This document shows, in pieces, positions 7,533-64,000 of a stretch of DNA of 64,000 nucleotides. The first letter of the stretch is position 1; every line of letters begins with the position of its first letter. The translations under genes and the position numbers were made by a program. The notes below the pieces were generated by a model. The model did not search any database, had not been told where the DNA came from, and was given only the letters and a program-made list of their open reading frames with translations. The stretch comes from Nitrospirota bacterium (lineage in GTDB: Bacteria > Nitrospirota > UBA9217), in assembly GCA_963818475.1 (NCBI GenBank), contig CAWFSF010000006.1:1440001-1504000 (forward strand), read 5' to 3'.

Positions 7533-7563
7533 GTTTGCAGGACCATCTGATAAAACCGGTAAA

Positions 7564-7799: not shown

Positions 7800-7831
7800 A
7801 AAAAGACGGCGGCCATTGTTTGGCCGCCGTC
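7800..7831 (-). terminator. Terminator of the cytochrome operon
   Basis: GACGGCGGCCA-loop-TGGCCGCCGTC with an adjacent A tract. Confidence 0.65.
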
Positions 7832-7875
7832 CTGATGTGCATCGGATGCAGAATGAACCCTGAAACTACTTCTTT

Positions 7876-23000: not shown

Positions 23001-23613
23001 CCAGATGGGTCCGATCAATGTGGACGCTCTCCAGGAATTCAACGAGCTCAAGGAGCGCTACGACCTGCAGACGGCCCAGCAGAACGACATCAACGAGTCG
23101 ATCAACAACCTCAAGGCGACCATCGCCAAGCTCGACGTCGAGACCAAGGAGCTCTTTAGCGAGGCCTTCAACGCGATCCAGGAGAAGTTCAGCGAGGTCT
23201 TCACCCTGCTCTTCGAGGGCGGCAAAGCAGAGCTGGTGCTGCTCGACCGAGCGAACGTCCTCGAGTCCGGCATCGAGATCATCGCCCAGCCCCGCGGCAA
23301 GAAGTTCCAGAGCATCACGCTGCTGTCGGGCGGCGAAAAGGCGCTCACGGCCATTGCCCTGCTCTTCGCGGCGTTCCTGGTGAAACCCAGCCCCTTCTGC
23401 CTGCTCGACGAGGCCGACGCTCCGCTGGACGAGGCCAATGTCATGCGTTTCACCCGTCTTATCCGCGAGATGAGCGGCCACTCCCAGTTCATCACGATCA
23501 CGCACAAAACGGGCACCATGGAGATGGCCGATGCGCTGTACGGGATCACGATGGACGAACCGGGCTGTTCCCGCGTGGTTTCCGTCAGGCTCCGCGAACC
23601 ATCCCTGGTATGA
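20026..23613 (+). CDS. smc: Chromosome segregation protein SMC (multiple frameshifts)
   Basis: [16 protein letters not shown], hinge ([22 protein letters not shown]), [20 protein letters not shown]. Confidence 0.95.
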
Positions 23614-33355: not shown

Positions 33356-33498
33356 CGGATCATGGCCGGTCCTGAAAACCGTGCAATGCGGATTGCAACC
33401 GTTAGCGCAGATTCTCGTATCTGCGCTAACTTATTTTCATATCAGCACCCGTGTGGTACAATAGAGCGGTATTGCATGCTGTTGCCAAAGGAGCCGCC

Positions 33499-38220: not shown

Positions 38221-39757
38221 ATGAACCTCCGCACTGCGGCGCTGGCAGCCGTCTCAGGCCTGCTGTTGGCGGCTTCTTTTCCGACCATCCAGCTTCACCT
38301 TCTTGCCTGGTTCGCCCTGGTCCCCCTGTTCATCGCGCTCAAAGGCAGCTCCGTCAGGAACGGCTTCTGGACCGGGGGCATCACCGGCCTTGTCTATTTT
38401 GCCGGCACTGTGCATTGGGTCACCAATTCCGTCCATTTCTACGGCGGCGTACCGCTCATACCGGCTTCGCTGATCACCCTCCTGCTCTGCGCCTATCTTG
38501 CGCTCTACCCTGCCTTGTTCAGCGCGGCCCTGATACATATCAGAAAAAACCATCCGTCCCTGGCCTTCCTTGCGGCTCCTGCGCTCTGGACCGCACTTGA
38601 ACTGGCACGAACCTATGTGTTCAGCGGTTTCCCCTGGTCCCTGCTCGGGTATACGCAGTACACGGCGCTTCCCGTCATACAGATTGCCGACATCACCGGT
38701 GTCTATGGCATATCGTTCCTGATCGTGCTGGTGAATGCTGCCCTGGCCGAGCTGATTTTTGACCGCAAACGGTTCATTCCGCTGGTTGCGACGGGATTGG
38801 TCCTTGCGCTGGTACTTTCCTACGGTGTTCTGCAGCTCCGCACGCCCGAAGCAGAAGGAACCTTCAAGGTCGCGGTCATCCAGGGAAACATCGAGCAGGA
38901 CCAGAAGTGGGACCCTGCCTACCAGAAGCAGGTCACCAGCGTGTATGAACGGCTGACGCTCAAGGCCGCGAAGCTGCGTCCGGATCTTATCCTCTGGCCT
39001 GAGACCGCAACTCCTTTTTACTTTAACAGCCCGGGGAAGGCCGACCAGGAACAGACCGTCGACCTGGAGCGCTTCGTGAAAAGCAATCATGTTCCGATCC
39101 TGTTCGGAAGTCCCGACCTACGAGGTCCTTCCCGGAAGGGTGGTCCATCTCAGGAACTCGGCATTCCTGCTCTCCCCGGAAGGCGCGGCCCTGGCCGAAT
39201 ACCACAAGTTCCACCTCGTACCATTTGGCGAGTATGTTCCGCTCAAGAGTGTGCTTTTTTTCGTTGATAAAATGGTCCAGGCGATCGGCGACTTCCAGGC
39301 GGGCAGCGAATACACGGTCATGGCCGTTCCGGTCCCGGGTCAACAGGACGTGAAGGTCAGCACGGTCATCTGCTACGAGATCATCTTTCCGGACCTGGTC
39401 AGACGGTTTGTGAACAAGGGCGCCACGGTGATCACGACCATCACGAACGATGCCTGGTTCGGCCGCACGGCCGCTCCGTACCAGCATTTTTCCATGGCCG
39501 TGTTCCGCGCTGTTGAAAACCGCGTACCCGTGGCCCGCGCGGCCAATACCGGCATCTCGGGGTTCATCGACGCAAAAGGCAAGATTCTGCAGACATCCGG
39601 CATCTTTGTTGAGGCTGATCTCATGCAGGCGCTGGCCCCGGGCACCGTACGAACCTTGTATACCCGCTACGGGGATGTATTTTCGTACCTCTGCGTCATC
39701 TTCACGTTGACCGTACTTTCTGGATACCCTAAAAAGCCGCAGAGCAAAAAACGCTGA
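38221..39757 (+). CDS. lnt: Apolipoprotein N-acyltransferase (frameshift near 39110)
   Basis: GFPW..GYTQ, QGNI, WPETA, K.HLVPFGEY, ICYE, TNDAWFG, RAANTG. Confidence 0.95.
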
Positions 39758-40949: not shown

Positions 40950-43328
40950 TTACTCAACCATGTTTGTCACAACATCCCTCACTGCTGATCGGCCGTGGTC
41001 GTCCACAGCGCGCACCACGAACCTCCCCGGCTCCGGCTTCCAGAAGAATACCTTACCGCTCTCTGAACTGCCGAGATATTTCTCGCTCATAAACCAGTGA
41101 ATGGTCTTCGAGTCTGCATCGGTGACTGCCGTTAATGGCACGCGCTCGTCTTTGAACGACCCTGCCCTAAGACTGTATACAACTCCGTCCCGTGGAGAGG
41201 TGATCTGCGGTCCTGTTCCTCTGGATGACATCACTTCGTTGCTGCATCCCGGCTCGTAAGGAGGCGGCACGCGGCGCGGGACGCCGGCCTGCCGGAATAT
41301 CGCTATAAGATCGGACGGCCAGAACTCGTATACTTCGGATCTCGTCCTGGGGCCGCCATCAATGCAGGAGCGCAGGCCCGTCCGGCTGTTTATGGATATC
41401 CTTCGGTGAACGTCGCATTTCGCAATCGGTGACGTGCCGGGAATGAACCAGGTGGATGCCCGCTGTGTGCAATCGGGACCCGGAAGCCCGCCTGACAGGG
41501 CGCAGACCTCGACCTTGGTCAGGTTCAGTTCCGCCAGTCCCTTTCCGCTAAACTCATCGATCTCCGAATCCTCGGACTTAAGCGAGTCTATGATCTCGAA
41601 GAAAAGCGGCGCTGCCGCTTCCCGGCCAACAAAGGCGGGATTGCCTTCTCCGTCGAAGTTCCCGATCCAGACCGCCAGCACGTAAGGCCCGACAACCCCC
41701 ACCGACCATGCATCACGAAACCCGAAGGAAGTGCCGGTCTTCCAGGAAACAGGTAAATGGTCCCGGATCCATTCCGGGCGAAATCCCTGAAGCGGATTGG
41801 GATTAGCTGAAAGCATATCGAGCACCAGGTAGCTCGCCTCTTTGCTTAAAAGCCGCGCCCCCTCTTCTTCCTTTTGGGACTTAAGGAACTTGAATCCTTT
41901 CAGCTCGCCCCCGTTCGCGAGCATCGCGTAGAGCTGCGCCAGCTCTTCCATAGAAACCTCCGCACTCCCCAGGGCCAGGGACATGCCGTAAAAGGACTCA
42001 TCGCGCATGCGCGTGATCCCGGCCTTGAGCAGAAACCCGTGCAGCCCCGGTGAAGCGAGACGCGATGTAATCTCAACAGCCGGCACGTTCCTGCTCTTCA
42101 CCAGCGCGTCCTTCGCCTTGATCGGTCCAACGAAATCGTTGTCGAAATTCTCGGGATTGTAAGAGCCGAAGCTCATGGGCGCATCCTTGAGCATGGTCAT
42201 GGGATGGATAAGCCCCTGGTCGATCCCAAGGCCATAGATGAAGGGTTTCAGGGCCGATCCCGGAGAACGCTTCGCCCGTGCCCCGTTCACCTGGCCGTCG
42301 ATCTTTTGATCAAAGAAGTCAGCAGAACCTACCAGTGATTTTACTTCAAGGGTCCGATGGTCAACCAGAAGGACTACGGCGTTATTGACCCCCTTCGGCC
42401 TGTTCGCTTCGACATAGCTTTTCACATGCCGTTCGATGAGTTTTTGGAGCCTGAGATCGAGCGTGGTGTGGAGCACCGGATCAAAGGGATCAAGCTCGCG
42501 TACTTCGTTCGCAAAATGCGGAGCCAGGAACGGCAGGTCAGACGGTCGTTTGAGAACGATAGGCGCGTCCACGAAAGACTTCTGGTCCTTGTCTTTCGGA
42601 TACTTCCCGACCCATTTGGCGAAAAGTACCTTACGCGCCTGTTCGAGACTCTGGTACGCAGGCATCCCATCCTCCCCCCTATTCCCCATCCGCTTCGCCG
42701 GGCTTTGCGGTATCACGCTCAAAGTAAGCGCATCGGTGAGCGTGAGCTTGTCAGCGTTTTTATGAAAGTAGATAAGACTCGCAGCGCCGGCACCTTCGAT
42801 GTTCAGGCCATAGGGTACGAGGTTGAGATAGGCTTCGAGGATATCGTTCTTGGAATAAAGCAGTTCCAGCCAGAAAGCTGCAAGGATCTGCGTTGTTTTG
42901 CCGGAGATCGTGCGGGAGTTGATGTCGTATTTGATACGCGCAAGCTGCATGGTGATCGTGGACCCGCCGATCTTCCGGTCCTTCTTGATATAGGTGTGCC
43001 ATATCGCGCGGCCAAGTGACGCCGGGCTCACTCCCGGATGAAACCGGAACCACTTGTCCTCGTGCAGGAGCGTGGCATTGATCAGGACCGGCGAAATGGC
43101 TTTGAGCGGCAGCCAGAGGCGATATTTATCGTCCCGCGAAAGCGTTAAGCGAATGAGATTCCCGCTTCGGTCATAGATCGCCTGGGAGAAGCTGACGTCG
43201 GATCTGAGAGCGGGGGAAAAGAGGCGGAGAAGGATGAGAATGGTTAATAATGCAACTGCTATACGGGCGAAGCGCATCACTAAATGCGCCACTGCGAGCA
43301 GTTTGTATCGCGGGGCCGATCCGGTCAA
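40950..43328 (-). CDS. pbpC: Penicillin-binding protein 1C
   Basis: HEDKWFRFHPG, GGSTITMQ, SPGSALKP, SRN, KTGTS and a BiPBP C-terminal domain. Confidence 0.93.
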   Translation of the reverse strand: MTGSAPRYKLLAVAHLVMRFARIAVALLTILILLRLFSPALRSDVSFSQAIYDRSGNLIRLTLSRDDKYRLWLPLKAISPVLINATLLHEDKWFRFHPGVSPASLGRAIWHTYIKKDRKIGGSTITMQLARIKYDINSRTISGKTTQILAAFWLELLYSKNDILEAYLNLVPYGLNIEGAGAASLIYFHKNADKLTLTDALTLSVIPQSPAKRMGNRGEDGMPAYQSLEQARKVLFAKWVGKYPKDKDQKSFVDAPIVLKRPSDLPFLAPHFANEVRELDPFDPVLHTTLDLRLQKLIERHVKSYVEANRPKGVNNAVVLLVDHRTLEVKSLVGSADFFDQKIDGQVNGARAKRSPGSALKPFIYGLGIDQGLIHPMTMLKDAPMSFGSYNPENFDNDFVGPIKAKDALVKSRNVPAVEITSRLASPGLHGFLLKAGITRMRDESFYGMSLALGSAEVSMEELAQLYAMLANGGELKGFKFLKSQKEEEGARLLSKEASYLVLDMLSANPNPLQGFRPEWIRDHLPVSWKTGTSFGFRDAWSVGVVGPYVLAVWIGNFDGEGNPAFVGREAAAPLFFEIIDSLKSEDSEIDEFSGKGLAELNLTKVEVCALSGGLPGPDCTQRASTWFIPGTSPIAKCDVHRRISINSRTGLRSCIDGGPRTRSEVYEFWPSDLIAIFRQAGVPRRVPPPYEPGCSNEVMSSRGTGPQITSPRDGVVYSLRAGSFKDERVPLTAVTDADSKTIHWFMSEKYLGSSESGKVFFWKPEPGRFVVRAVDDHGRSAVRDVVTNMVE

Positions 43329-45826
43329 GAGGTTCTCTCGATCTGCCGGAGGATCGTTTCGTCCTTGATCTGGCGGTCCTGTGCAAGAAGGAATGCCTTG
43401 CTCAGAATGATCGCGAACATCTGGTCCCCTTCGAAGGGCAGGAAGACCTTTTCAGCCTTCCCCTTTCCCGTGCTCCGGTCCGGCACAATGCAGAGGTACT
43501 GGTCATTCGGCTCCATGAGGATATTGCCGCTCCCCAGGTGGATCTTGTAAGTCCGCAGATCGCCCCTCACCTTGAGGAACTTGCCGTCGATAGCGCATTG
43601 ACCGGCAATGGCAAGCCGCGGCAGGAGGCGCATCATCACGTCCTTCCTGGTCTCGGCCTGCGCCGAGAGATCGCCGAAGGAATAGCGCTGCCAGTAATCG
43701 GTTCCGCCGTCCCGGGCCGCGCCCTGGTCCTGCCACTGAGGATCGTTGCCCACGCTGCAAACGCCCACGAAGAGATCGATGTCGCGCATGATCTCGGTAA
43801 AGGCAAGGGCGGGTACATCCGACAGCGGCAGCTGCCCGCCCTGCAGGTTCGTAAAACGCACCTGGTCGGTCGACACATAGAGATAAATGCCGGATTCCGA
43901 TTGCTGATCATCGGCAGGCACGGACTCCACCCAGAATTCGGCCCGCAGTTCCCACTGGGGTAGTTCGATCACCGGCGTATTAGCGGAATCCCAGCCTCCC
44001 TGCAGCTGGTACTTCCATCCGCGCTGCTTGCAGAGGGCGCTGAACTGGTGTTGTTTCAGGATATGGGCGGCGAAGCGGTTCGAGTAGGTCCCTGTTGCGA
44101 GCTCGGCGTCCGTCAGGAGGTAGAGTTCCCGGTGAGCCTGCTTGAAGGGCTGGGAGATACCGTGCCGTTCGAGCCATAAACGCCATTCCTGCACGGTGGT
44201 AACGTCGAACCCGACCGGATGCCACAGCCGGACGACGGTGTCGCTGCCCTCCCACTCCTCGGTCCTGTCCTGCGCATCCACCAGCCGGTCTTCTCTCAGG
44301 GCCGCCAGGCCCGATCTGCCCTGTCGTTCAAAGTGCCAGATAAGTCTCCGGGAGAGCTGGGCAAGGAGTGGATGGTCCAGGTAACGCTCGCGCCAGAGGG
44401 GGTATGACAGGCTTCTCTGCGACAAAAAGAGCCGTTCGATGCGGTCGCGCTGGGCGGGCAGCATGTTCTCGATGTCCTTGACCGTGCGTTTAAGCGAGGC
44501 AAGCTCTTCGCCAAACTCCTCCCGGACCGCGGCAGGAACTGACTTCTGGGTCTTGCCGTCCTTCTTTATCCAGATGAGCTCGGCATCCGCCGTACCGGTG
44601 ACGCGGACCTCCGCCGCATGCTCGCCCAGGTCCTCGTGAAGAATGCCCTGTCCTTCCAGCCCGAAGGTCGGGACCGCGATCTCCTCCAGGTCGGCGCGTG
44701 TCATGCCTGCCCGGGCGGCTGTCTCTTCAAGCGCAGTATTGATCAGTGAATGGACCTTGGAATACTTCACCTTGAGCTGCAGGCGGGAGAGCTGGGCCAC
44801 CGGTTCCAGGCCGGGGAGCCTGCTCAGGACATAGATGCAGGCATTGCCGACCTTCACGGAACGGGGGCCGATACCGGGGATCTTCTTGAACACAGCGAGT
44901 GCAACGTCGCAAATGGCCTGGCACGATGATGCATCAGAGGTGGCCGCACAGTACCAGATCAAACCCTTGAGAAGGTCGGCCTTGGCTTCGGTCATGGGTT
45001 CGCCGGTCCCCTTCTCCGCCGTCGCGAACCATCCGGTTACCCGTTCCTTGAAAGTCTCGGCCCCCGCTGCTTCGAGTCTGCCGCGCGCTTCCTCCATCCA
45101 TTTTCCCGAAGCCTCGGAAGACCTGATGGCAAAGGCATGTTCGATGAGCCGCTGCCACGCAGCCGCGTTGGCCTCATCCATCGCTGACAGGTCCGCGAGC
45201 ATCATGTCCGTCCAGGGTTCGCCCGGCTCGATAACATTCTTGCGCACATCCCCGAGCAGCAACCCGATACGCTTGGCAAGCTTCCGCAGGTCCGCGCAAT
45301 CCGGTGTCGCAAGATGCTTTTTCTTCAGGTCATCGAGACCCCGATGCAGGTCCTCGGACAGGCCGGCGCGCGTCGCATGGCGCTCGATCTGGGTCACTAT
45401 GGGACGCAAGGTCGATTCCAGATACAGGACCTGCCGCTGCTCCTTGAGACCGTCTACGATGTATCTAAGGTCCTGTTCCGAAAAAGGAAGACGGGAATGC
45501 AACAGGGCCGAAAAAACCTGCAGATTGATATCGGTGACGTAATAAGGGTTGTCCTGGGTGGACTGAAAGGCCATGCGGTCGAGCAAAGCCAGCACGATCC
45601 GGACCTTGACCTCCGGGGACGCAGACAGCAGTAGACGGCCGGTTTCGTGCGCCTTGGGGTCCCTGTTCCAGTGGTACGGCTCTTCCTGCGTGATCACCTG
45701 GCCGAGGTAAGCGTTGATGGCGAGATGCTCCTCCCGGCGGGGATCGTCCGGCATGAGCGGATACCCGTCAGGACCCACGGCTTCCGGCTTGTCCTGCTGC
45801 TTGAAGATATCGAAGAACCCTTTCAT
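43325..45826 (-). CDS. DUF4132-type large protein
   Basis: 833 aa with an alpha-helical N-half. C-half motifs HPLL..L.RRLIW, LWHP, QPFKQAHRE, SNRFAAH and EIMRDIDLFV recalled as DUF4132 (needs HMM confirmation). Confidence 0.8.
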   Translation of the reverse strand: MKGFFDIFKQQDKPEAVGPDGYPLMPDDPRREEHLAINAYLGQVITQEEPYHWNRDPKAHETGRLLLSASPEVKVRIVLALLDRMAFQSTQDNPYYVTDINLQVFSALLHSRLPFSEQDLRYIVDGLKEQRQVLYLESTLRPIVTQIERHATRAGLSEDLHRGLDDLKKKHLATPDCADLRKLAKRIGLLLGDVRKNVIEPGEPWTDMMLADLSAMDEANAAAWQRLIEHAFAIRSSEASGKWMEEARGRLEAAGAETFKERVTGWFATAEKGTGEPMTEAKADLLKGLIWYCAATSDASSCQAICDVALAVFKKIPGIGPRSVKVGNACIYVLSRLPGLEPVAQLSRLQLKVKYSKVHSLINTALEETAARAGMTRADLEEIAVPTFGLEGQGILHEDLGEHAAEVRVTGTADAELIWIKKDGKTQKSVPAAVREEFGEELASLKRTVKDIENMLPAQRDRIERLFLSQRSLSYPLWRERYLDHPLLAQLSRRLIWHFERQGRSGLAALREDRLVDAQDRTEEWEGSDTVVRLWHPVGFDVTTVQEWRLWLERHGISQPFKQAHRELYLLTDAELATGTYSNRFAAHILKQHQFSALCKQRGWKYQLQGGWDSANTPVIELPQWELRAEFWVESVPADDQQSESGIYLYVSTDQVRFTNLQGGQLPLSDVPALAFTEIMRDIDLFVGVCSVGNDPQWQDQGAARDGGTDYWQRYSFGDLSAQAETRKDVMMRLLPRLAIAGQCAIDGKFLKVRGDLRTYKIHLGSGNILMEPNDQYLCIVPDRSTGKGKAEKVFLPFEGDQMFAIILSKAFLLAQDRQIKDETILRQIERTS

Positions 45827-48933: not shown

Positions 48934-49981
48934 TTACTTCTTAAGAGAGTGAACAATCCACTGCTCAATTTCAGGCAAGTACTTCGGACTCACTAACATG
49001 ATCTCCAAAATGGCCATATATTGGTCGGGTCCATATAAGTGTATCCTCATCTGGGATAGTCTTTAAAACATCATAGGCTTGCGGAGATAGAAGTAAAAGC
49101 GTCAAGTTATCATTCACTTGCCTCCCTTTAAGAAGACTGGTTAGCGCGTCATAGTCGTGGAAGGAGTATCCGACAGCAAGCACGATTTTGGCATGCTCGC
49201 AACATCTGGAGAAATAGTGATAGGCGGTCAAATAAGGTTCCGCTGTGGTCACTTTGTTACCAGCTGGATAAATAACTGTATTCTGGTACGCATCTGAGTC
49301 AACAACATCATACATTGGCAGAGATTGGACAATCCTCCCACTAGATGTTATTTTCAACCAATTCACCGATCCGTGAAGCTTGTGAAGGACAATGTGACGA
49401 ACCGGACGGGTGATATTAAACAACTCAAAGTTTCTTGGATTCCAGAAATGTTCTCGCAGAAAGGGGTCATCTTCCATACCATCAACAAAGTCATATTTGG
49501 AGTATTGTTCATTGCAAAAATTTTCAATTGCCAGATCATAGTTCGTAGTGAAGATAGGTAAGCACTGAGTAGCCGAATCGATATGGGAGAAGATGACATC
49601 AAGCAAAGGCTGATAAACCTCAATAGCCCTTTTAATATCAACAGCTCGGTACTCTCGAATAATTGAATGACGAATAAGAGAGCGTAAGCTTGCTGCGTCA
49701 CTTCTTTTGACTTCGTACGCAGGCTGATTTTCGACATCTAAAACGAAAGACGACACATACTGTAAATTTAAGAAAGTCTCGAGGTCTCCCATAATAGACT
49801 CCAAGTCATACCCCCTGGCTAATATGAGTGCTGAAAGAAGAGATGCCTCGTTGTCAGACGTAATCTCAGTGGCGAGCTTCTTTACAAATTGTTCCATTGT
49901 AGGCTTGCCGAGAGGTACGGAAGCCCCGGCACCGAGAAATAGAATGATAGGTGATTGAGTAATGGTTGGGTTTAATGGCAT
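48934..49981 (-). CDS. SIR2-family (SIR2_2) putative NADase
   Basis: LFLGAGAS, FTTNYD, KLHGSVNW, VGYSFHD. The ORF as read stops at 48971; a 1-nt correction extends it to 48934. Confidence 0.88.
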
Positions 49982-50031
49982 AATTATTGTGCGTGAACTT
50001 CCATATCTCGATTATTTTTCTATATTGTTTT

Positions 50032-52397
50032 TTAGGAAGGGATTTTATGCCTTCCCGTATCTCCAACGCAATGACCGCATTGGCACTGGACGAGTTCTGC
50101 GCCTGTGTCATCAAGCTTATAAACGGGTTTTTTGCAGTTCGGGCAGCTAAAAAACTCCAATGCCCTCTCACACACTTCAATGAGCTTGGCCTCCTTCTTC
50201 ACTACGTCAAAAGAATGAGTGGCCTTGTTTCCCCACGAGAGCAATAGCTTATCTGCATCGCGTAATGCATCAATCGCCTCGGCGTAAGGTTCATGCTCTT
50301 TCGTGCCTAACTTCATGAAGCACTTTTTACTATCTGAAATGAACTGGAGGAGGAAGTCGTGTGCTGTTCGACGATCGTTCTTCTCGCGGTAAAGGTAGGG
50401 CAGCCTGACCTTGACTCGCTCGGCCACTATGGCGAGTTCTATGTCCATGATCTTGCGCGCTGTGTTTCCAGCGGAGTCTGGTGAAACCTTTAATTGCGCT
50501 CGTGCATCGTCGAACGTTGATGTCTTAGCGGACAAACGGATACCGACTTCAGGCTTCTCGTAGGGCATGAGAGCGTTAAAAATCCAGTTTCCACCGTCGA
50601 GCTGCTGTCTGAGTTCCGTGTACCACTCTCGGTCGTGAGTTAATATGACCACCTGCCGACCGTTGAACTCTTTTTCCAAGAGATCAACGATCATTCCACG
50701 ATGGTTCCGGTCAAGACTGATGACCACATCATCCAGAAACAGCGGCCGGTCCGTGTCCGCTTCGCGCTTCGCCATTGCAAGGAAAATACAGAGACCAAGG
50801 CTATTTCTATAGCCCTCCGAAAGCGTGAGTCTTGGTGAGTCCTGTTCAATTCCATAGAATTTAAGTCCGATGTCGATGGCCTTGTCGGCGTCACTGGGGA
50901 GATAAAGGCGCACATGCGCAATTGCCTCGCCCGGGTGCAGGATTGCCCACATTTTCTGAATGTCGGAGGAAATTTCACCGATCACATTCTTAGACTGCTG
51001 TCTGATTTCCTCTCGGACGCCTTGCTCAAGTAAATTTAGGAATGAAATCAGGGCTCGAGCGCGTGTCGCGTCGTCGGCCAGCATCTTCGACTCAATTACG
51101 GCTTTGGCAGCCTCAACAATCTGTTTATCGGTTGAAAACTGCTGGACGTCAGGCGGGGCGATACCTGCGGATGAAGACGCTGCGGCTATCAGAGTCAACA
51201 GATTATTCTCAATGCCCACCAGATCGTTTTCGCCGCAAGAGGCACGGAGCGACTCAACATGAGCCCATCAATGTACGCGAAGTTATCGGAGAAGGCCTTC
51301 TTGTTGAGTCCGTCTCGCCATGACTTCACATCAGATTTGCTCAGATTAGACCTTAGAGACGTGAGGATGTCGCAAAGAGATCCGATAGCGGCCTTGCGAT
51401 TGTTGAAGATGTTAATGATCTCTTGAAGGCGCTCTTTCTCAGACTTGACGTGTGTCTTAAAATCATCGACTGAGATTGCTCGTCCACAGGCTGGACATTT
51501 TACAGCTTTTTCTTCTTTTAGTTTGTCCACAAAGATGCCTGCGGATTGGAGCACCTCCAGCTTTTCAGCGATCAGCGGCTCCATTGTACTGGATAACTTG
51601 TGACTTTCGGAGCGCACTTCATCGACGTGACTCTTGAGGTTTAGACCAGAGATAGCCTGCAAAGTAAGGTGTCTCCTCTGCTCAGCGGAAGAATGAATGA
51701 TCCGTTCTTTGAGTGCGGCTTCAAACTCTTTGCAGTGAGAAAGTGGGTCCGTCGTGGTCCCTTTGCCCTCGCAGTACTTTGCATGAAGGTCTGCGATCAT
51801 CTTATAAATTTGTTCGTCGGTGGCCGCACCAAAGGTAGTACTCCTTTTTGACGCGACCTCCCTAAGAGCAGCCGTTGCCTGCCAGAGCTTTGATTCTTGC
51901 TCTACGGACTTTGAGAGCTGCCGTAAATTCTCAGCTGCCACTTCCATGTGGTGAAGACCGAGAAGTGGCAGAAGTGTCGAGTATTTTTCTCCCTTGGTAT
52001 CTTGGATGAAAGACGCGACCTCATCTTGCCTCAAGATTGTGCGCTGATAGTCCCACGTGGCCATCGAGGCAGTTTCTGATCCGGACCTCGTGAAGGATCC
52101 ATCTCGCTTGATCTCCCAAAGGAGTTCTGACGCATCTTTGAACTTAATACGCAGTCTTGTTTTCCTGCCCGCGGGTGTGTGCGTGTTGATGAGCGCCTTC
52201 TCTTGATGCTTCCCACTATACTCGTGTGATAGATGCCGAATCTTGCCGTTTTTGAGTACGAATTCAAGCGCGTCTACAAAAGAGGATTTACCAGACCCAT
52301 TCTCCCCGTAGAGAACCATCGACTTGGATTCGGGGACAAGAGAAACCGCTTCGGCTGCTCCACGGAACCATTCGATCTCAATGGCCTTAATCCTCAT
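50032..52397 (-). CDS. Rad50/RloC-like ABC ATPase with zinc hook and C-terminal HEPN-like and Zn-ribbon region (frameshifted)
   Basis: FRG, YGENGSGKSS, coiled coil with CPACG, LSEG, LDDVVISLD..HR, THD. C-terminal GNTARKIMD..GNKATH and CPNC..CQCG. Confidence 0.82.
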
Positions 52398-52609
52398 TCT
52401 CTGCCCCCATTTTTTGCGGGTCCAGCGTGGACATATCGGCAATCAGCGCCTTGGCTGCGGTTGTCAGGTTCAGGCGAGCGGAGCTGCCGCTCGCTGAGTT
52501 GGCCTCTCAGTAGCTGTTTTATTCGGGTCGCGGTTGCGACTGTTATGGAAGCATGCGTCTTTTGAGCTTCTTCAACTCGTTTTGAGATCCAATCATCACT
52601 ATTAGACAT
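52394..52609 (-). CDS. Small hypothetical protein overlapping the ATPase start
   Basis: AGGTGA RBS and MSNSDDWISKR start. Stop overlaps the ATPase ATG. Confidence 0.6.
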   Translation of the reverse strand: MSNSDDWISKRVEEAQKTHASITVATATRIKQLLRGQLSERQLRSPEPDNRSQGADCRYVHAGPAKNGGRE

Positions 52610-52922
52610 TGGTTCACCTTGATTGCACGGAATTACTGATAATAAATTGTCTTGGGTACAGTACTGGTCAGACATCAGAAAGTAACTTATTGTTAATCCC
52701 ATCTACCCCTGTCCCTGTAGGGTCAGACCTACTTTGTTGCCATTCAACCTTGTTTCTGGAATCCACCAGGGTCAGATCCCTTGACATGGTAACTGCCACG
52801 GTCACGCTGGATATCGTCTACTTCTCGATAAAGTCAGTTAAAAATTAGTATGAACTTATGGATTTACCTTGTCAAACAGAATGTCTTTTGGGCTGTTGGT
52901 TTGCTACCCAGCATTTTTAACC

Positions 52923-53081
52923 TTACATCAACATGATCTCCGGGGAAAACGCGTATGGCGGGAGGATCATTTTCCACTGCAACTCACACACAGGCAGTCT
53001 CTGGGATTTCAGAATATCGACTGCAAGGACCACATTCACGGACGGCGGGACGTAATCCATGGACAACTGGTAGGTCGAGTA
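52923..53081 (-). repeat. 159-bp degenerate duplicate of the 3' end of the lipoprotein gene (53950-54108)
   Basis: Manual alignment gives 148/159 identity without gaps. Confidence 0.9.
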
Positions 53082-53172: not shown

Positions 53173-53607
53173 TCACGGCGCAACGATGCGATCCGCCCCT
53201 TCCGGCCATACGCGCTTAAAGTCGTTCATATTGAAGGTCACAATGCGGTCAGCCCCGCACTTCTGAGCGGCCTTCGCGATAAGGGCGTCGTACACAGCGC
53301 CCCCGGAAAGCCCCATATCGCTCATATGTTTTATCGTTGCAAGATAATCGGAGGAGGAAAGCGGCACAATGGACACCCTCGGCTCAACACTTTCGTGGAT
53401 AAGCCGCCATGCGAGGCCCGGCGATATTCTTGGACTGACCGGCAGCGTCGAGAGCACGGCGTAGAGCTCCGCAATGCTGTGCGACGATATCACCAATTCG
53501 GTCGTACGGGACTTTCCTTTTGCAAACCAGGGCAGGGCGCGCAGATGCTCCGGGTGCGGCTCCACGAGCGCGGCCACGAGCACCGACGTATCGAGCAGCA
53601 CCTTCAT
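53173..53607 (-). CDS. vapC: PIN-domain toxin, VapC family
   Basis: VLLDTSVLV, AE, YDALI, IVTFN..DF. Confidence 0.9.
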   Translation of the reverse strand: MKVLLDTSVLVAALVEPHPEHLRALPWFAKGKSRTTELVISSHSIAELYAVLSTLPVSPRISPGLAWRLIHESVEPRVSIVPLSSSDYLATIKHMSDMGLSGGAVYDALIAKAAQKCGADRIVTFNMNDFKRVWPEGADRIVAP

Positions 53608-53867
53608 GATCTCTTCCCGGACACGACTTTGTGAAGCCGCTCGTCACGGTGCGCCCGGACAGCCCCCCTGAGGTCCCCGGTCGCTTTCCCGGAATAAACA
53701 AGGAGGCCCTCTTTCACCATGAGCGAGGGTTCGTGATCAACGAGCTTCAGCACGACCTCATTCTCTTTTTCGTCTATCTCGATCTCCACCCCCGGCCGCA
53801 GTCCCAGCCGATCCCTGATGTCCTTGGGTACCACCACTCTTCCAAAACGGTCCACCGTTGTTTTCAT
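53604..53867 (-). CDS. vapB: AbrB/MazE-type antitoxin
   Basis: VDRFGRVVVPKDIRDRLGLRPG. ATGA overlap with the toxin. Confidence 0.9.
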   Translation of the reverse strand: MKTTVDRFGRVVVPKDIRDRLGLRPGVEIEIDEKENEVVLKLVDHEPSLMVKEGLLVYSGKATGDLRGAVRAHRDERLHKVVSGKRS

Positions 53868-53917: not shown

Positions 53918-53949
53918 TAGCAATACCTGATCGCGGGTATCGACTGACA

Positions 53950-55544
53950 TCACAGCAACATGATCTCCGGGAAAAACGCGTACGGCGGGAGGATCATTTT
54001 CCACTGCAACTCACGCACAGGCAGTCTCTGGTGTTTCAGCACATCGACTGCAAGGACCACATTCACGGACGGCGGGACGTAATCCATGGACCACCGGTAG
54101 GTCGAGTAGACCAACGGCCCGCCCTCGATCCTGGCCATGGACAACAGCATATTGATCGATGTCACCTCGATTGAGACGTTTCCATTCGGCGTCACGCGGT
54201 AGATGCGGCCTGCGAAAAGTGAACCCCAGACGCCCTTGACGAAGGTCCAGGCCCCCTGGAGTGAAAGGCCTGATTTCGCGAACGTCTCCTTTTCATAGGC
54301 CACGGCGCTGACCAGCACGTCGCCGTTGGCCTCGATCATCAGTCCCAGGGGCATTGCGCCTTCAGGGAGGTCCACGGGACCATCGGCGACCAGGGTATTT
54401 TGCTTCAACTCCATCCTGACGAGCCCTGCCCGCGTCGTGATCGGGTTGGCCGGTTTGTCAGACCACATATCTGATAACGCGTTGACGCACCTGCTGTGTA
54501 TTGAGGCCCGTCAGGACCCAAAGCGCATCGACATTGCGCGGGTCCGCTGCGATCGCGATGCTGTACGACGCGGCGGCAGGCGGCCCTGTGGGGAAAGCCC
54601 CCGATACTGCGGGCGAGGACGGGACGGACAGATCGATCAACAGGACCCGGTTATTCGGCTCATCCAGGACCGCGGCTGCGCTCCCGCCAGCCAGAAGGAC
54701 CAGATTCCCGTAACCCGGAGCAGCGTCCTTGGACAAAACCGGCAGGTCCTGCTTGGCGACGAATTTCGGGTGTTCCTGATCGGACAAGTCGAATACCGCA
54801 AGCTCCCCCTTGGTGAGAAGAAAGCCGTGAGAGCCCCCTTTTGCAACTGCAAGAGAGATCGGCGGGTATCTGGTTTCGAATCCCGTTGAAGCCACTTCTT
54901 TGGAAACGTTTTTCGAACCAAGGTGAACGGTCTTCAGCTCGAACCGTGAGAGCCCTTCATGCTCCGCCTTGCCCCCGCTTGCCACAACGTAAAGAACGCC
55001 GCCCTCGGGAGAATGGGCAAAGGGACCCACCCCGGGACATGCAAGCGGATCGGGAGTCCTTATCGAAGACTGTCTTTTCCTCAGGCGATGTCCGCCAAAC
55101 AAGGAGCCTGTTGCCCTTTGGATCGCCCATAACAAGAAGGTTTGTTACCGGGAGGGTGATCTCATCAGCTCCCGAGGGGGTCTCCACCCTCACCGTGTAT
55201 GCATGACGGAACTTGACGTCGCGTGGCAGGCGAAAGAGCAGACCGCCTCCTTGAATGCCTGCCGCGACAGGGACCTCCCTGCTGTCGAGAAACAACTTTG
55301 CCTGGTCCGTGTTCAGCCCCGTGCCTACCATTGCAACCCATTCGCCGGCCACGAACATCCCGTCGCTCTCTGTCTGGTCAAGCTCCCCTTCGCGCGGGAC
55401 ATGCAGGCTCCCGAGGTCCACGAGCTTTTCGATCTTCGGCTTCTCCGCAGGCGGTCCACCGAGCGATACCCGAACGAGTTTTGCACCCTGGCTGCACGAC
55501 AAGAGCAGGACGGAAGAGACCGCGATAAGCGCCAGACGTTTCAT
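53950..55544 (-). CDS. Lipoprotein with Ig-like and beta-propeller-like regions (frameshifted)
   Basis: Lipobox LLSC. Three overlapping ORFs: 54957-55544, 54458-55135 and 53950-54468. Confidence 0.6.
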
Positions 55545-58183: not shown

Positions 58184-61100
58184 TTACTTCTCTTTCTTTT
58201 CCTTCTTTATTTCCTTCGCTTCCTCCACCACCATCGTCCCCGGCAACGTCCTTGCCCGGACCGTCCGGTCATACATGGACTCGGCAAACGCCGGCGGGAT
58301 CACGTACTTGCCTTTGTTCGTCGCTTTGATCCGGTATACGAATTCCTGGGCAGAGTCGCCGACGCTGCCGAAGAGCACCACCCGGTCTTCCCGGATGTCC
58401 ACGAAGTCCGGCTGCCAGGTGGACGCGTCCGTTCCGATGGGAGAATCCCATTGTTTCCGGGTTTCCTGCTCCCCGGACCGTTCTTCTCCGCCTTCGCCCT
58501 CACTGTCGCCTTCTTCTTCGCTTCTCTGCTCCTGAACCTGTGCGGGCTCTGATGCAGGACGTGATTTTTCGATCACCACGTCGAACCCACCGGGCAGCAG
58601 GTCCACGATCGCCACGTTGCTGTGGTATCCGGACTTGACAGACCGCATCTTAAAGTGGACCTCTATCTCCGAGCCAAGGGCTGTTGACGTGATCACGTTC
58701 CCTTTGAGGTCCCGGTACTCGCGCTGGACCTCGATGCCTTCCTTGATCTCCTTTTGGGGGAGGGATTTGTCGAAGCCCGCCATCGTAACCTGATAGAACG
58801 TGGGAAAACCGCTCTTGCTCTCGATCCGCACCTTCTTAGCTTCACCTGAGAAAGCTGCCTTGGGGAAGAGTCCCTTCGGCAAGACAAGGTCCTTCATCCC
58901 CTTTTCAAGGATCTCCCTGATCTTGATCTCGGCAACGGCCTTCTCGCCTACTGCTTCAGCATAGGAGTCCATGGCAAGGATCGCATAAGCTGACGTTATG
59001 GTATTGAAACTGCCGCTCGATATGCCGTTCACGATGCACTCCATGCACAGCATGTCCCCTTCGGAGAACTTCTTGAACCGCTCGGGGAAGTGTTTTCCAA
59101 GAATATAAAGATGCTGAGAGTCATGGGCCAGGCTGTCGTAGAAATTGTCATAATCCGGGTCAACAGGTTGACCCATCTTCATTCCCGAGATGAGGTCATC
59201 AGCCTTTGAATCGAGTTTGAGCAGTTTATAGGTCGCAGCGAGATAAGACGCTGTAAGGTCCTTCTTCCACTTTTTCGTTTCCTTGGCCTTATCAAGCTGC
59301 TCGCGCATGGCATTCACATAGTCCGTGGTAACGACGCCGTTCCTGGTCAGGAGGTAGACCGCGTATGCGCCGGCGCGCGCCTTGGCAAGGGAATCGCTCC
59401 CAGTCATGCCCTTTTTGCCGATAGCGGCAAGATAGGCGAGACCGCGATCCATGAGCTCCTGCGGTACAACAAAACCACGTTCTTTCGCCTCGGTCAGGAA
59501 ATGCATGGCATAGATGCTTGCGTACTCCGAGACATGAGAGTTTGCTGCCCAGAACCCGAAAGCGCCATCCGCATTCTGGCGTGAACGCAGCACGCTGATC
59601 GTCTTCTCCAGGTTCTCCGCTGCCTTCTTGTGCGTGTACCCGAACTCCGGCCGGCTTTTGAGCACAATTGCCGGAAAGGCCATGCTCACGAGCTGCTCCG
59701 TGCAGAGATAGGGGAATTTATCCAGATATGCCACCAGGCCATGGGCCAAGCTGAGCGGTACGGGTGAGGCAGTGGCGTCCAGGGTCCTGAACTCGGGATG
59801 CATCCTCCGTTTCACCTCTACGTCCACTTTCCCGGATTTGAAAGATCCGCTCTTTACATCCGTCATGTACGGGATAGGAGGCCTCACGCTTGTCTCGATG
59901 GAATAAGCGGTCTTCTTACCTCCGACCGAAGCGGTAAAGGTGAAACGCGCCGACCCCAGGACCTCTTTCGCTTTGACCTTGAAGGATGCGCTCTCTTCCC
60001 TGCCTTCGACAATCTTGAGGATACGCTGCCCCTTGTCCAGTATCTCCAGATGCTCCGATGTAGAACAATCGAGATTTACTGCCGCGTCCTTGCCGGATCC
60101 CACTACATTATTGGCAACACTAACGGTAACAATGAACTCGTCACCCGGCGCTACAAAGGTCGGCACATTCGGACTCAGCACAAAATGGCCGCGCACAGCA
60201 GACCTTTTCTGGTTTGCGCCGATAGCGTCAGGAGCGACTGCCACTGCCATGACCCGGATCGTGCCGTTGAAGTAATCAGGCACGCGGTAGACCAGCTCCC
60301 GCATGGTAGGATCGATATTCACGATGCCTGACCAGTAGACCACGGGCTTGTCGCGCTTGCGTTTGAAGGGATTCAGGTTCTGGCCGAGCGCCTTGCCCTC
60401 TTCGTCCCCTCCCGCAGCCGAAAGCATCCGTACGATGGAGTTCTCGGGCATGATCAGGTCCAGGATCTGGGCTGTCTTCACCTCCAGCGCGCGCTTGCGG
60501 AAGAAATGCTCAAGCGGGTCAGGCGTCGTGTACCGGGCCACCTGGAGGATGCCCTCATCCACGGCATAGACAACGGCCTTGCCCGCCTTGTTCCCCTTGT
60601 AGCGTATTTTGAAGAGTTCCCCCGGCCGTGCGAGCTCGGGCGTATCGATGTCGATCCTGATAGTCCTTTTCCCGCGGCTCACCGAGAACGGCATCACGCC
60701 GTAGCTCAAGGGACTCATGAAAATTTCCTTTGAGTCGATGCCACGGACAAAAGAGACGTTCACGTACCCGTTCCCTTCGAAGGTGGAGGGAACGCGAATT
60801 TTCTGGACAGAGTTCGTTGCAGTCGTTTTAAACCACCTTGTCGCGTATACCTTGTCCCGCTCGATGGTGATGAGCCCGGCCCCGGTGTAGGGGGCGCGGA
60901 TCTGGAGCTCGATCTCCTCGCCGGGCGCGTAGTCGGACTTGTTCAGCTTGATCAACAGCTCGGCGTTCTTCTCCAGGCTCCGGGTGAGGTTCCCCATGCC
61001 GGCAACGCTGAAGGCAATGCGGCTGAGTTCTGCCTTCTTGTCATCCTGCACGATCAGGAGAAAATCTCCCGGGTTTGTTGTCGGCAGACGAAACTTCGTG

Positions 61101-64000
61101 CCTTGTTCGGAGAGCGACAGGTCTGTTGTACTGACAGGGATTTCCCTCTTGACCGATTGATACTTGTAAACGCCGCTGGACTGTTTGGTCAGCACCGAGA
61201 CATAGCGCTCCTCGATGATCTGAGCCTTAAGACCCGTGATCCCGATCTTCCTGAGCGACGGGTCGATCGCTATCAGATCCACGGTCCTGCTGCTGCCCTT
61301 GTGGATGTACGCAAGGTCTCCGTCGGGTTTGTAGCCCACGAGATAAGCGAGCGGCGACACAAGGACCGCGCTCGTTGAGCCGACGCTTCTGCCCCCTTCA
61401 AGCTCGTAGCCTTCCGCCGCGAAGGTGAGCCGATAGGTGGCCTTGTCAAAACGTCCCAGGCTGAGATCAATTTCCGCATCACCTTTTTCGTTCGTGATTG
61501 CGTCGGGAAGCTGCTCAACAAAGCTCTTTTCCGCTTTCGCCGGATCGAAGAAGGTGTAGTCTTCGTATTGTTTGAAGACGGTGATGCAGGCACGAGCGTC
61601 ACCTCGGCTGCAATGCGGTGATTGACCGCCGGTGTACCGTAAAGATTCTTGAGATTAACCATGCCTTTGAGGCCCGCAGGCGAGACCCAGCCTTCCCTTC
61701 GCTCCTGGGAAAGCTTGGTCGATATTTTCAAGCGGTCCGGCAGGAACTCCTCAACGCGCACCGATGCCGATCCCAGAAGCGCGCCCCGTTTATTGTCTTT
61801 CACGATGTAGAGGTTCGTCGTGTACTTGCCCGTGGGCGACGTGTCCTCGGTCTGGTATTTGACTTCCTCGAATCCCGAGGCCGTAAGGCTTATTTTCTGC
61901 CTTTTTACCTCCAGACCCCGGGAGTCCATGATCGACGCTTCGAGTGGGATGCCGGCGAGCGGCCGCCTCCAGTTCGCGGCCTTGACAATGATGCCGACAT
62001 GGAATTCATCTCCAGGCCGGTAGATGCCCCGGTCCGAGAAAAGGTACGCATCAAGCCGGTCTGCAGCTCCCTCGGTCACCACGCCGCCGATATCGAAACG
62101 TGAGAAGTTGAGGTTTCGTTCGCTCCGCTCATAGGGCAAAAAAGAAATATCGCTCCCCTTCCGAACGAGGTAGACTGCTGGTGCCTTTTCATGTTCGAAA
62201 TCAGCCAGCTTCGGGAACTGCGCCCGGCCTTCCGCATCGGTATACGCTCCAAACACGGACACGCCATTTTTCCCCAGAACATCAACCCGGGCCCCGGACA
62301 CGGGGTGCCCGGTCTGAATCGACTGGACAAAGACGTCATGGGTCTGGTCGGCGTTGTCTTTCACCAGGACGCCCAGATCCGTGATCAGGATCAGACGTTG
62401 CTCACGTTTCCCGGTGGTTTTTTTGTTCTTCGGGTCCCAGCTTTCCACCCTCAGGAAGAACATCCCCCGGTTCGTCTCTTTGTCGATCTTGAGATACCGG
62501 GAAAAATCGAAAGTAGTATATTGAGCCTTGCCCTGTTCCCTCTGACCCAAAACGCGGATTTCAGTAAAACGCTCGGAGATGTTTTCCTCGTTAAACTCGT
62601 AGTTCAGGAATTCAGGATTTTTTATATCTCCACGGGTCTGGGTTACGAGGTGATTGATGTCCTCAGGGACCACACGGCCGATCTGAAACCGGACGGCCTC
62701 GATGTCCCGGGCAAACACGGACAGTCGCTTTTCGCCGCGAAGGCTTAGGATCGACCCACTGGCCATGATGCCCAGTTCCTGCGGGAAGTCGGGCACACGC
62801 TGGATCGTATCAAACTCCTTTGCCAGCAGGTATCCACCGAAGGATTTGATGTCCTTGTTCAGTTTAATGAAGAGGTATCGACCCGGCGGTATTGAGTATT
62901 TAAAACTGTGAAGCTCTGCATACTCCCGATCCCGGGGCAAGGGCTTCAGCTTGACCGGTGTTGAGAGCTCCAGGACCTCCGGTCCGATCTTGGAAGGATC
63001 TGACCATTCAGACCACTGATAGTCCTTCTTGCCCTCCTGCTTCTGGATCGGTGGAAGGTCCTTCGGCAGGAGAAAGACGGACAGGTTTTTCACCATCTCC
63101 GCTTCCGACACTCCCGCTGTAGTAGCCACCACCAATACCTGTTCAGGCTCGTACCGTTCGTTCCGCACAAGGGACAACTCGACTGAATCGATCCGGAGCA
63201 AGGTGTATTTGCCTGGTATCGTTACCTTTCTCTCAATGGCATCGGCAGTACTCGGTCCGCCGCGATCGGCGCGCACGCCTGAGTCGATGAGAACTGACAT
63301 CGTGGCGTCCTTATCAGGGATATCCAGAGGCTTGGACTGGATGTATGCCTCGCCCTTGTACTTGTCATAGGACACGGTGAAGGGATAGCCTTTTCCGCCG
63401 ATGCCGAGGATCCCTGTCTTCTGGTCGGCCCGCTCCAGCTTGATCCGCTTCTCGAAATCAGCGGAGTCCACGGGATGGGTGAACTTGATCGTAGCGATGA
63501 CCCTCTTTATTTTCGGGTCCTCGGGGTCCTGGTAGAACTCGGCATTCGTCAGCTCTGCCCCGAAGCGGGGCGTTTTAAAAGAGTAGGAATACGTGGAAAG
63601 CTTGACATGGTCCGGGAAAAGCGACTTGTCCATGTGTACGGTGTATCCAATGCCGGGCTGCCAGTCCGTTTTCGGTTTGAAGAGAAGTGCATTGTCCTTG
63701 ACCCAGGTCCACTCACCGTCAATGGCGGGAGATATCGAAACGCCTTGCGTAATGGTCTTGCCGATCAGGTCGAGACGGGCCGAGGAACCGCTGAACAGAA
63801 CGCGGATCGGATCGGGTCTTAAGACGTCCTCAAGCTTGGTCAGTTCCGGCACGGTGCCGGAGACCTCGATCAACCCCCTGCGATGCGCGGCATACACCAT
63901 GACCAAAGCGAAGACGACGAAAATGACAGCGAGAATACCGCCGAGCCGCTTGAAGTTGATGCCGCGCGGCTTGTCTTCGGCAGGCTTGGCCTTGCTATCC
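58184..64000 (-). CDS. Bacterial alpha-2-macroglobulin (5' end outside window; frameshift near 61580)
   Basis: TDLGV, FSDRGIYRPG, VEEFLPDR, AVDEGIL, thioester motif PYLCTEQ, Q..DG.FG.W, VDLLPGGF, REDRV, AESMY. Confidence 0.95.

Follow-up and report, generated by a model that had tools for sequence, protein, structure and literature searches.

We have studied a locus on the minus strand of a 64,000-nucleotide (nt) stretch of DNA from a Nitrospirota bacterium (assembly GCA_963818475.1, contig CAWFSF010000006.1, positions 1,440,001 to 1,504,000), which we will call the window. Three consecutive open reading frames (ORFs) are found at positions 48934–52609: a small ORF, an ATPase which resembles Rad50 and RloC, and a SIR2 protein. 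We consider it rather probable that the conserved unit is an unnamed pair of genes and a candidate anti-phage system, formed by the small protein and an RloC-like ATPase with its own probable RNase, that it lies beside an independent gene for a SIR2 NADase, and that the frameshifts found in these genes are likely errors. An initial annotation, made from the sequence alone, had described an AT-richer three-gene unit. The three ORFs are indeed present, and their G+C content is 0.425 in SIR2, 0.501 in the ATPase and 0.516 in the small gene, compared with 0.54–0.60 in the flanks and 0.553 in the window. All the motifs it quoted are also there: GENGSGKS, CPAC, LTLSEG, LFLDDVV, GNTARKIMD, WGNKATH and CPNC..CQC in the ATPase; GAGAS, TTNYD and HGS in SIR2.

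The small gene and the ATPase are found together in nearly all the loci that can be tested. A scan with one genome per prokaryotic species gave 144 stretches which match the ATPase; the best 80 were kept and correspond to 66 loci. With a profile of the small protein its gene is detected immediately upstream of the ATPase in 59 of these, and L010 is added when its start is corrected. Four loci with 15 nt or less of upstream DNA were excluded, which leaves 60 out of 62 testable loci with the small gene; 28 of these 60 were used to build the profile. The two loci without it are L051, which has only the C-terminal part of the ATPase, and L045. In L045 the ATPase ORF (5830–8343) has an N-terminal extension of 50 residues; it is the sole locus with a whole ATPase and no detectable partner. 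Across loci the stop codon of the small gene overlaps the start of the ATPase by 4 or 11 nt. In the window, as read, the TGA of the small ORF overlaps the ATG of the ATPase (ATGA); once the frame is corrected the two genes share 11 nt, which is also the case in many relatives. As had been supposed at first, the small ORF is a genuine and tightly coupled partner.

The SIR2 gene shows no such association. It is found by tblastn in none of the 66 ATPase loci, and the SIR2 family is absent by Pfam from the 116 ORFs downstream of the ATPase. These ORFs come from 60 of the 66 loci: up to two ORFs of at least 100 amino acids (aa) were taken within 2.5 kb, and six loci had none. No third gene is conserved across the 66 loci. 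We also searched from the side of SIR2. A single SIR2 sequence gave no relatives in a metagenome scan; loci were found when an alignment of SIR2 sequences was used. Only one of 80 such loci (L131) has an ATPase-like stretch: it has 77 residues (E 7e-4) and lies 4.6 kb downstream, which is the wrong side, from a SIR2 that is 30% identical. Four of the 80 SIR2 proteins are at least 50% identical to that of the window; one of their loci, L085, has no upstream DNA, so that close relatives could be compared in three loci. In these three (58–68% identical) the adjoining genes code for an MFS transporter, a carboxyltransferase and a PIN protein, on the opposite strand. In 400 other genomes sampled from the phylum the SIR2 of the window has no match at E<=1e-20. 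The initial annotation had proposed that the ATPase gates SIR2 as its effector within a three-gene unit, and had named as evidence against this a rarity of ATPase homologues beside SIR2. Such a rarity is what we find, with none of 66 ATPase loci and at most one of 80 SIR2 loci, so that this role of SIR2 is not supported.

The features of the locus, from its start to its end on the minus strand, are the following:

52394–52609, minus strand: small ORF as read, 71 aa from the ATG at 52609
52387–52609, minus strand: small partner gene, frame-corrected, about 73 aa; the alternative frame ends at 52387–52389
51195–52442 and 50032–51219, minus strand: ATPase as read, two overlapping ORFs plus the last 13 residues in a shifted frame
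50045–52397, minus strand: ATPase gene, frame-corrected; 785 aa in intact relatives
52284–52307, minus strand: Walker A motif GENGSGKS; G36, K37 and S38 are invariant in 47 sequences
51888–51947, minus strand: outgoing head-proximal helix of the coiled coil, residues about 150–169; docking site of the small protein as predicted by co-folding
51486–51497, minus strand: CPAC zinc hook, at the tip of the coiled-coil insert; C301, P302, C304 and G305 are invariant in 47 sequences
50995–51054, minus strand: returning head-proximal helix of the coiled coil, residues about 445–464; second half of the docking site predicted by co-folding
50632–50829, minus strand: motifs of the C-lobe, signature LTLSEGYRNSLG, Walker B LFLDDVV and H-loop LTHD; their columns are invariant
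50149–50520, minus strand: HEPN-like helical tail domain, as predicted from an alignment of 48 sequences and an AlphaFold2 (AF2) model
50077–50145, minus strand: Cys4 zinc ribbon (CxxC ... CxC); the conserved end WRYG, which comes next, is out of frame here because of the 3' indel
49982–50044, minus strand: spacer of 63 nt between the ATPase stop and the SIR2 start, AT-rich, G+C 0.29
48971–49981, minus strand: SIR2 as read, 336 aa
48934–49981, minus strand: SIR2_2 gene, frame-corrected, about 348 aa

The corrected frames take into account four insertions or deletions (indels) of 1 nt with respect to intact relatives. The one at about 52467 affects the small gene; the ATPase has two, in its middle (about 51259) and at its 3' end (about 50070); the fourth, at about 48985, is at the 3' end of SIR2. 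The profile of 28 relatives of the small protein matches the window in frame 1 for positions 3–47 (E 7e-17) and in frame 2 for the remainder (E 5e-5). In the ATPase the break near 51259 appears in the three-frame translation where relatives read YIDGLNVESLR; the break near 50070 is 13 residues ahead of the protein end. The start of the ATPase is at the Met of 52397, where the profiles of the family begin to match. Past 48985 an alternative frame of SIR2 resembles the C-termini of its relatives and ends at 48934; the outer coordinates of the locus, 48934 and 52609, are the corrected SIR2 stop and the ATG of the small gene.

These frameshifts are most likely assembly (consensus) errors. We read them in this way because housekeeping genes of the window are split too and because related contigs do not have these indels. 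The genome is an assembly of 7 contigs with a completeness of 91%. In the window we find split copies of lnt (38221–39757, LNT_N followed by CN_hydrolase), hflX (33451–35155, GTP-bdg_N/M followed by MMR_HSR1) and the chromosomal smc (21348–23613, a piece with the hinge and then a piece with the C-terminal head). An ABC ATPase gene is also split (6801–7482, profile positions 3–83 and then 80–136), and so is a bacterial alpha-2-macroglobulin gene (58184–63906), which is read in overlapping frames. The related contigs, which we call X1–X3, come from three public runs of two studies; they differ from the window by 1–12%, and those of X2 and X3 cover only parts of the stretch. A fourth run, X4, yielded almost no matching sequence. 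They show 1-nt indels relative to the window exactly at 48985, 50070/50071, 51259 and 52467.

It could also be thought that the four frameshifts are real and that the three genes are pseudogenes, the dead relic of a once-active island. Suicide effectors are frequently inactivated, and every gene of the locus is affected: within 3.7 kb there are four indels of 1 nt and a deletion of 3 nt. Four indels in 3.7 kb exceed the density seen in the rest of the window, where neighbouring long genes of 792 and 833 aa are read through; it speaks against our interpretation, and therefore real decay in this strain keeps a minor share of the probability. Nevertheless lnt, hflX and the chromosomal smc are normally indispensable genes, and their splitting points to indel errors throughout the assembly. 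Each indel of the locus falls in a run of one or two identical bases. The frames are otherwise clean, with no stop codons and no larger deletions, and the ATPase is 92% identical to an intact relative of 785 residues (P0001). We consider a relic unlikely.

At position 50187 of the window 3 nt are missing, a codon of the helix which follows the His motif; an in-frame CTC is present there in contigs of X1, X2 and X3, and the intact P0001 is likewise one residue longer. Relatives of the ATPase and of SIR2 in loci L011, L022, L031, L048, L055, L061, L062, L069 and L071 are likewise broken into two or three ORFs: such splitting of both genes is common in metagenome assemblies and contigs. In practice, the frameshifts of this locus should not be taken as gene decay without accurate reads.

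The ATPase has an ABC head whose motifs (Walker A, Q-loop RQDE, signature, Walker B and the H-loop LTHD) are split by a long insert, and the corresponding columns are invariant in 47 sequences. Pfam detects SMC_N, AAA_13, AAA_15 and AAA_23; in P0001 SMC_N covers residues 3–597 (1.9e-19) and AAA_13 gives 6.4e-14. The Rad50_zn_hook family reaches only E 0.09. By sequence the closest solved relatives are archaeal Rad50 heads (E 8e-9), and SMC heads are also found. Motifs and profiles agree with the early description of a Rad50/RloC-like zinc-hook ATPase which carries an extra C-terminal helical domain and a Cys4 ribbon.

Database searches give 855 relatives of the ATPase at E<=1e-3; the best 120 have mostly 785 aa and are 62–92% identical. 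The 66 loci of the genome scan belong to many bacterial phyla and to the archaeal groups Bathyarchaeia, Methanophagales and Hadesarchaea, with 35–65% identity. The mean column identity is 55% across 47 full-length sequences. The presence of such similar relatives in distant bacteria and in archaea points to lateral transfer. Viral contigs gave a single distant relative (21% identity). In plasmids there are 48 matching records, annotated as AAA family ATPase or hypothetical protein, all of them below 30% identity and none covering 80% of the query. A search with AAA_13 in the genome of the window found no locus other than this one.

The 116 downstream ORFs are a mixture of housekeeping and island genes: AbiV, RmuC, methylases of type ISP and others, GmrSD, AbiEii, Schlafen/AlbA_2, RhuM, parts of toxin-antitoxin systems and an integrase. 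By our own classing, in 20 of the 66 loci at least one of the two ORFs after the ATPase is a gene of restriction, Abi or toxin-antitoxin systems or of mobile elements. A defence-type gene follows directly on the same strand in several distant loci: AbiV in L018 and in the Hyphomicrobium locus L024, RmuC in L021 and L048, Schlafen/AlbA_2 in L011, RhuM in L030 and DUF2779 in L038. These genes may represent clustering in islands or a swappable accessory slot.

One might suppose that the pair is a housekeeping factor of DNA repair or chromosome maintenance, namely a paralogue of SbcC/Rad50 with an adaptor, and not an immune system. The likeness to Rad50 and SMC heads, the very high conservation across phyla and the many loci placed among housekeeping genes would fit such a function. 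On the contrary its distribution is patchy, as shown by the 144 matching stretches in the scan of one genome per species, and its similar relatives in distant groups suggest lateral transfer. The locus of the window is AT-rich and lies beside vapBC; elsewhere restriction, Abi and toxin-antitoxin genes are found beside it. There is no adjacent nuclease gene of the Mre11/SbcD type, and the tail of the ATPase has a predicted HEPN-like fold, which passages of a survey describe as typical of conflict systems (PMC3710099). We find a housekeeping role very improbable.

When compared with Mre11-Rad50/SbcCD, the ATPase shares the zinc hook and has in these proteins its closest solved head relatives. 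The small protein is predicted to bind the base of the coiled coil, where the C-terminal helices of Mre11 bind Rad50. The differences are clear: no phosphoesterase nuclease subunit is found here, the coiled coil has only about 300 residues altogether, a tail resembling an RNase and a zinc ribbon have been added, and the distribution is patchy, with probable lateral transfer.

The small protein belongs to no Pfam family (six proteins searched) and matches no recurring PADLOC model (28 searched); in particular, models of LmuC match none of the 28. Its AF2 model has three helices, with a predicted local distance difference test score (pLDDT) of 86. A search with this fold was uninformative: the best match has Z 5.6 at a root-mean-square deviation (rmsd) of 7.0. 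When it is co-folded with the ATPase, the interface score ipSAE is 0.77, 0.74 and 0.77 in three runs, while the best of 3 controls has 0.00; contacts agree by at least 96% between runs and the pLDDT of the partner is at least 79. The co-fold thus passes the mark used for this score. Among solved complexes 116 of 157 reach it, and among mismatched pairs 2 of 215; these counts are approximate here because our own alignments were used. The predicted interface is formed by residues 150–169 and 445–464 of the ATPase, the two helices through which the coiled coil departs from the head and returns to it. The small protein is thus predicted to dock on the head-proximal coiled coil.

This position has counterparts in other proteins. 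C-terminal helices of Mre11 hold the base of the Rad50 coiled coil and kleisins hold the necks of SMC proteins. Solved complexes of Rad50 with Mre11 peptides exist, and the success of the co-folding may be in part a memory of such complexes of the coiled-coil base, which weakens the prediction. Passages of a Lamassu preprint relate the long LmuC to the end of SbcD which binds SbcC, and place LmuC before LmuB (10.1101/2025.04.02.646746). The small protein may be a reduced equivalent of the portion of LmuC or Mre11/SbcD which binds the coiled coil, although no LmuC model matches it.

The tail of the ATPase comprises residues 598–785, approximately, with a helical part followed by the Cys4 ribbon. 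It has no Pfam or PADLOC model (none of four tails matched in PADLOC). The tail profile finds 247 matches at E<=1e-3 in 1.84 billion representatives; among the matches listed, every protein of at least 700 aa has the tail at about positions 590–790. The invariant residues, in P0001 numbering, are R648, D652, N674, D675, R677, H728, E736, C753, C773, C775 and W780, and C756 is nearly so. They give the pattern R648-x3-D652-x75-[ST]-H728, with N-D-x-R in between. The AF2 model (pLDDT 85) consists of a helical bundle, a beta hairpin and a small ribbon. An exhaustive structural aligner (VIA-align) ranks HEPN structures first: 2hsb with Z 8.8 (rmsd 3.1, 113 aligned) and 1ufb with Z 8.8 (rmsd 2.6, 105 aligned). 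They are followed by the sacsin HEPN domain 3o10 (Z 8.2), 1wol (8.0) and then the C-terminal region of AbiA, Csm6 and HEPN toxins. Six of the 20 best matches are titled HEPN and three more are Csm6.

Several results weigh against the view that the tail is an RNase related to RloC. A Foldseek search of the tail against the PDB gave no match at E<=1e-3. A Z of 8.8 is within the range which helical bundles reach by chance and below the safe level of the aligner. The canonical HEPN motif Rx4-6H is absent: the tail reads W-[GA]-N-[RK]-x-[ST]-H, where Gly or Ala occupies the position of Arg. Finally, hhalign finds no significant likeness between the tail and that of RloC-type proteins: the probability is 2.3% (E 0.02) and the aligned part is confined to 16 columns at the His motif. 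Passages of the HEPN survey record families with the conserved His and no Arg, and class the RNase domains found in RloC and in PrrC as diverged HEPN (PMC3710099). The motifs N-x-A-R-K-[IF]-[ML]-[DE] and N-x2-[ST]-H are common to our family and to the RloC-type set. Taken as a model, the tail appears HEPN-like; by analogy it is probably catalytic, an RNase.

Among the known proteins RloC comes close in design. It is described as an anticodon nuclease which excises the wobble nucleotide (PMC2610378, PMC3458546, PMC3874168); the protein of Geobacillus kaustophilus has 804 aa, compared with 785 aa here. Both have a split ABC head, a coiled coil whose single CxxC hook lies near residue 300, and a C-terminal helical domain of nuclease type. 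In RloC the cleavage of tRNA anticodon loops depends on DNA and on the hydrolysis of ATP. For comparison we used 11 full-length proteins with AAA_13 from genomes of the phylum, 10 of them in hhalign. All 11 have a single CxxC hook at about 265–306 and R-x3-E followed by [ST]-H at the published spacing. The published triad is R-X3-E-X36-52-H, often with Ser before His (PMC2610378). In hhalign the ATPase family and the 10 RloC-type proteins align with 98.9% probability (E 2.3e-17); the alignment extends from the hook through the returning coil to the C-lobe, and the CxxC motifs coincide. One canonical RloC-type gene (L154, genome G135) is found in the genus of the window: it has 794 aa, 533 bits with AAA_13, CxxC at 306 and R-x3-E ... 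S-H. This genus holds both classical RloC and the family studied here.

Nevertheless the two groups differ in several features. Our family has Asp instead of Glu, and 75 residues instead of 36–52 before His; this stretch contains the beta hairpin and the invariant N-D-x-R. The terminal Cys4 ribbon is an extra element. With AAA_13 P0001 has 52 bits over positions 487–582 of 713, whereas RloC-type proteins have 350–638 bits over about 1–713. Our family has a dedicated partner gene of 70 aa, whereas RloC is presented as self-contained, at least in passages of one paper (PMC3458546), and no consistent upstream partner was found at 10 RloC-type loci. Since the homology from tail to tail is not significant and several defining features of RloC are lacking, we have not filed the ATPase as a member of the RloC family.

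PrrC is another ABC ATPase fused to a C-terminal RNase of HEPN type, with a triad R-x3-E ... H; it is reported to lack the coiled coil and the hook and to be embedded in a restriction operon (PMC2610378). The PADLOC model of PrrC matches the C-lobe of our ATPase (1.6e-5). No restriction genes flank the locus of the window.

A third relative is Lamassu. The likeness concerns an SMC/Rad50-like ATPase related to SbcC, a small gene placed just upstream and a context of defence islands. The initial annotation had already remarked that the layout differs from the described Lamassu, and this remains true: there is no LmuA C-terminal domain, no LmuC match, and the order of genes is another one. In PADLOC the best models for the intact ATPase are LmuB, with PDLC03865 at 5e-31 and PDLC03859 at 3.7e-25 (residues 1–592 against 3–586 of 611, no curated cut-off being shown); an RloC-type profile matches the ATPase as well (E 2.3e-17). 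The best models for SIR2 are Aga_SIR2 and SIR2; nothing is found for the small protein or the tail. The locus might then be a Lamassu variant, with the ATPase as LmuB, the small protein as a shrunken LmuC and SIR2 as a Sir2-type LmuA. As with LmuC and LmuB, the small gene comes before the ATPase, and Sir2 is among the known effector domains of LmuA according to the preprint (10.1101/2025.04.02.646746); the predicted position of the small protein on the coiled coil would also agree. However SIR2 has only about 350 aa and its models cover 7–299, which leaves no room for the LmuA C-terminal domain, and no LmuA model appears among its 25 best PADLOC matches. The partner has 70 aa and is not recognised by LmuC models in any of the 28 cases; no third gene accompanies the 66 loci. 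The tail of 185 residues lies outside every PADLOC model: the presumed effector is fused to the ATPase, and not carried by a separate LmuA. The order of genes does not correspond to LmuA-LmuC-LmuB, and the small protein is predicted to bind near the head, whereas LmuC is head-distal in the solved short Lamassu described in the preprint (10.1101/2025.04.02.646746). A Lamassu variant is for us highly unlikely.

The SIR2 of the window keeps the motifs GAGAS, TTNYD and HGS. It matches the Pfam family SIR2_2 (PF13289) with 34 bits, the cut-off being 24.5. In PADLOC it gives 1.2e-25 with Aga_SIR2 and 8e-23 with SIR2 PDLC04087, and models of this kind range overall from 1e-25 to 1e-18; the match to NCBIfam SIR2_antiphage is weak, with 49 bits for a cut-off of 500. 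In 26 sequences N147, D149, H203, G204 and S205 are invariant and the glycines of GAGAS are nearly so. Its relatives are 995 stand-alone proteins of about 345–390 aa. The SIR2 NADases of defence systems (Thoeris ThsA, DSR, SIR2-HerA and pAgo-SIR2) share with it the PADLOC matches, the Rossmann glycines and the catalytic Asn, Asp and His. They differ in that this SIR2, with about 350 aa, has no added sensor domain and is most closely related to genes which stand alone. Among the 21 ORFs scanned between 38 and 64 kb there is no ThsB, HerA or Argonaute. In the literature we found no description of a small protein paired with a Rad50-like HEPN protein, or of an RloC-SIR2 system, in a search which did not extend to subscription papers and preprint supplements.

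The idea of a three-gene machine could still apply to this lineage alone: the Rad50-like sensor and the small subunit would control the SIR2 NADase in trans, beside the tail or instead of it. The three genes share one strand, the spacer between the ATPase and SIR2 has only 63 nt, and no terminator-like hairpin was found in it; one weak promoter-like site is present at 50011–49983. The trio is kept in at least three runs of two studies, with the junction between SIR2 and the ATPase retained in the contigs of X1, X2 and X3, and one contig of X1 bridges SIR2 into the 3' end of the ATPase. The likeness of X1 to the window ends 29 nt beyond the ATG of the small gene and 29 nt beyond the corrected SIR2 stop, so that in this shallow lineage the three genes are moved or preserved together, as a block. 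All of this runs counter to a separate SIR2. The catalytic Asn, Asp and His are also intact, a lone SIR2 of 350 aa shows no obvious sensor of its own, and the varied defence-type genes found downstream in other loci make a swappable accessory slot conceivable.

On the other hand, SIR2 is missing from all 66 ATPase loci and its family from all 116 downstream ORFs, and the only ATPase-like stretch among the 80 SIR2 loci is weak. The nearest relatives of SIR2 are solitary beside unrelated genes, and housekeeping genes follow the ATPase in most loci. The G+C content of SIR2 is 7.5 points below that of the ATPase. Common descent alone predicts that the trio is retained among near-identical strains, and outside such strains it is not kept. 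Moreover the ATPase family has its own probable effector domain, so that SIR2 is not needed. We find such a machine unlikely, and the same is true for any functional coupling of SIR2 to the pair in this lineage. Most likely SIR2 is a separate module, a neighbour of the pair, and probably a NADase which acts alone or with another trigger; it is best annotated in this way. Less likely still is a dual-output machine, in which the sensor, held at its neck by a 70-residue adaptor, would fire its own HEPN-like RNase in cis and a captured SIR2 in trans. If it were true, we would have a Lamassu-like system caught in the process of swapping effectors.

The surroundings of the locus have some other features. 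Scans of promoters and terminators in the locus gave consensus-level sites and nothing more. No repeats were found flanking the trio, and there are no tRNA genes between 40 and 64 kb of the window. A vapBC pair adjoins the cassette (PIN at 53173–53607, MazE-type at 53604–53867). It is bracketed by a direct repeat of 162 nt, 93% identical, at 52920–53081 and 53947–54108. The second copy is the 3' end of a gene of 172 aa (53950–54468), whose end has therefore been duplicated. This repeat beside the cassette looks like the result of repeated insertion at one hotspot. On the other side we find, at 40950–45826, a PBP1C-type gene (transglycosylase, transpeptidase and BiPBP_C) followed by a protein of 833 aa with DUF4132/DUF7737. 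An alpha-2-macroglobulin gene lies 12 kb from these two genes, on the far side of the island.

By analogy with RloC, we can now suggest how the pair might work. The two proteins would form a complex linked by the hook, and the Rad50-like part would sense DNA ends or intermediates or products of phage replication. ATP turnover would then switch on the HEPN-like RNase of the C-terminal tail, which might cut tRNA or another RNA; translation would stop and the infection would be aborted. The small subunit might clamp the neck and keep the heads silent, or it might help to recognise the trigger as a co-sensor. A SIR2 of separate origin would have come to lie 63 nt downstream in this lineage; it may be co-transcribed, without being an integral part.

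If this interpretation is correct, the pair would link the design of RloC, with a fused effector and no partner, to that of Lamassu, with separate partners. A subunit of 70 residues which is predicted to bind the neck offers a testable idea of how such nucleases stay silent. Neither PADLOC 2.0 nor Pfam has a model for the tail or the small protein, so that these genes are annotated only as 'AAA family ATPase' or appear as a lone LmuB-like match. A widespread and very conserved family of Bacteria and Archaea would thus join the immune sensors based on Rad50 and SMC proteins.

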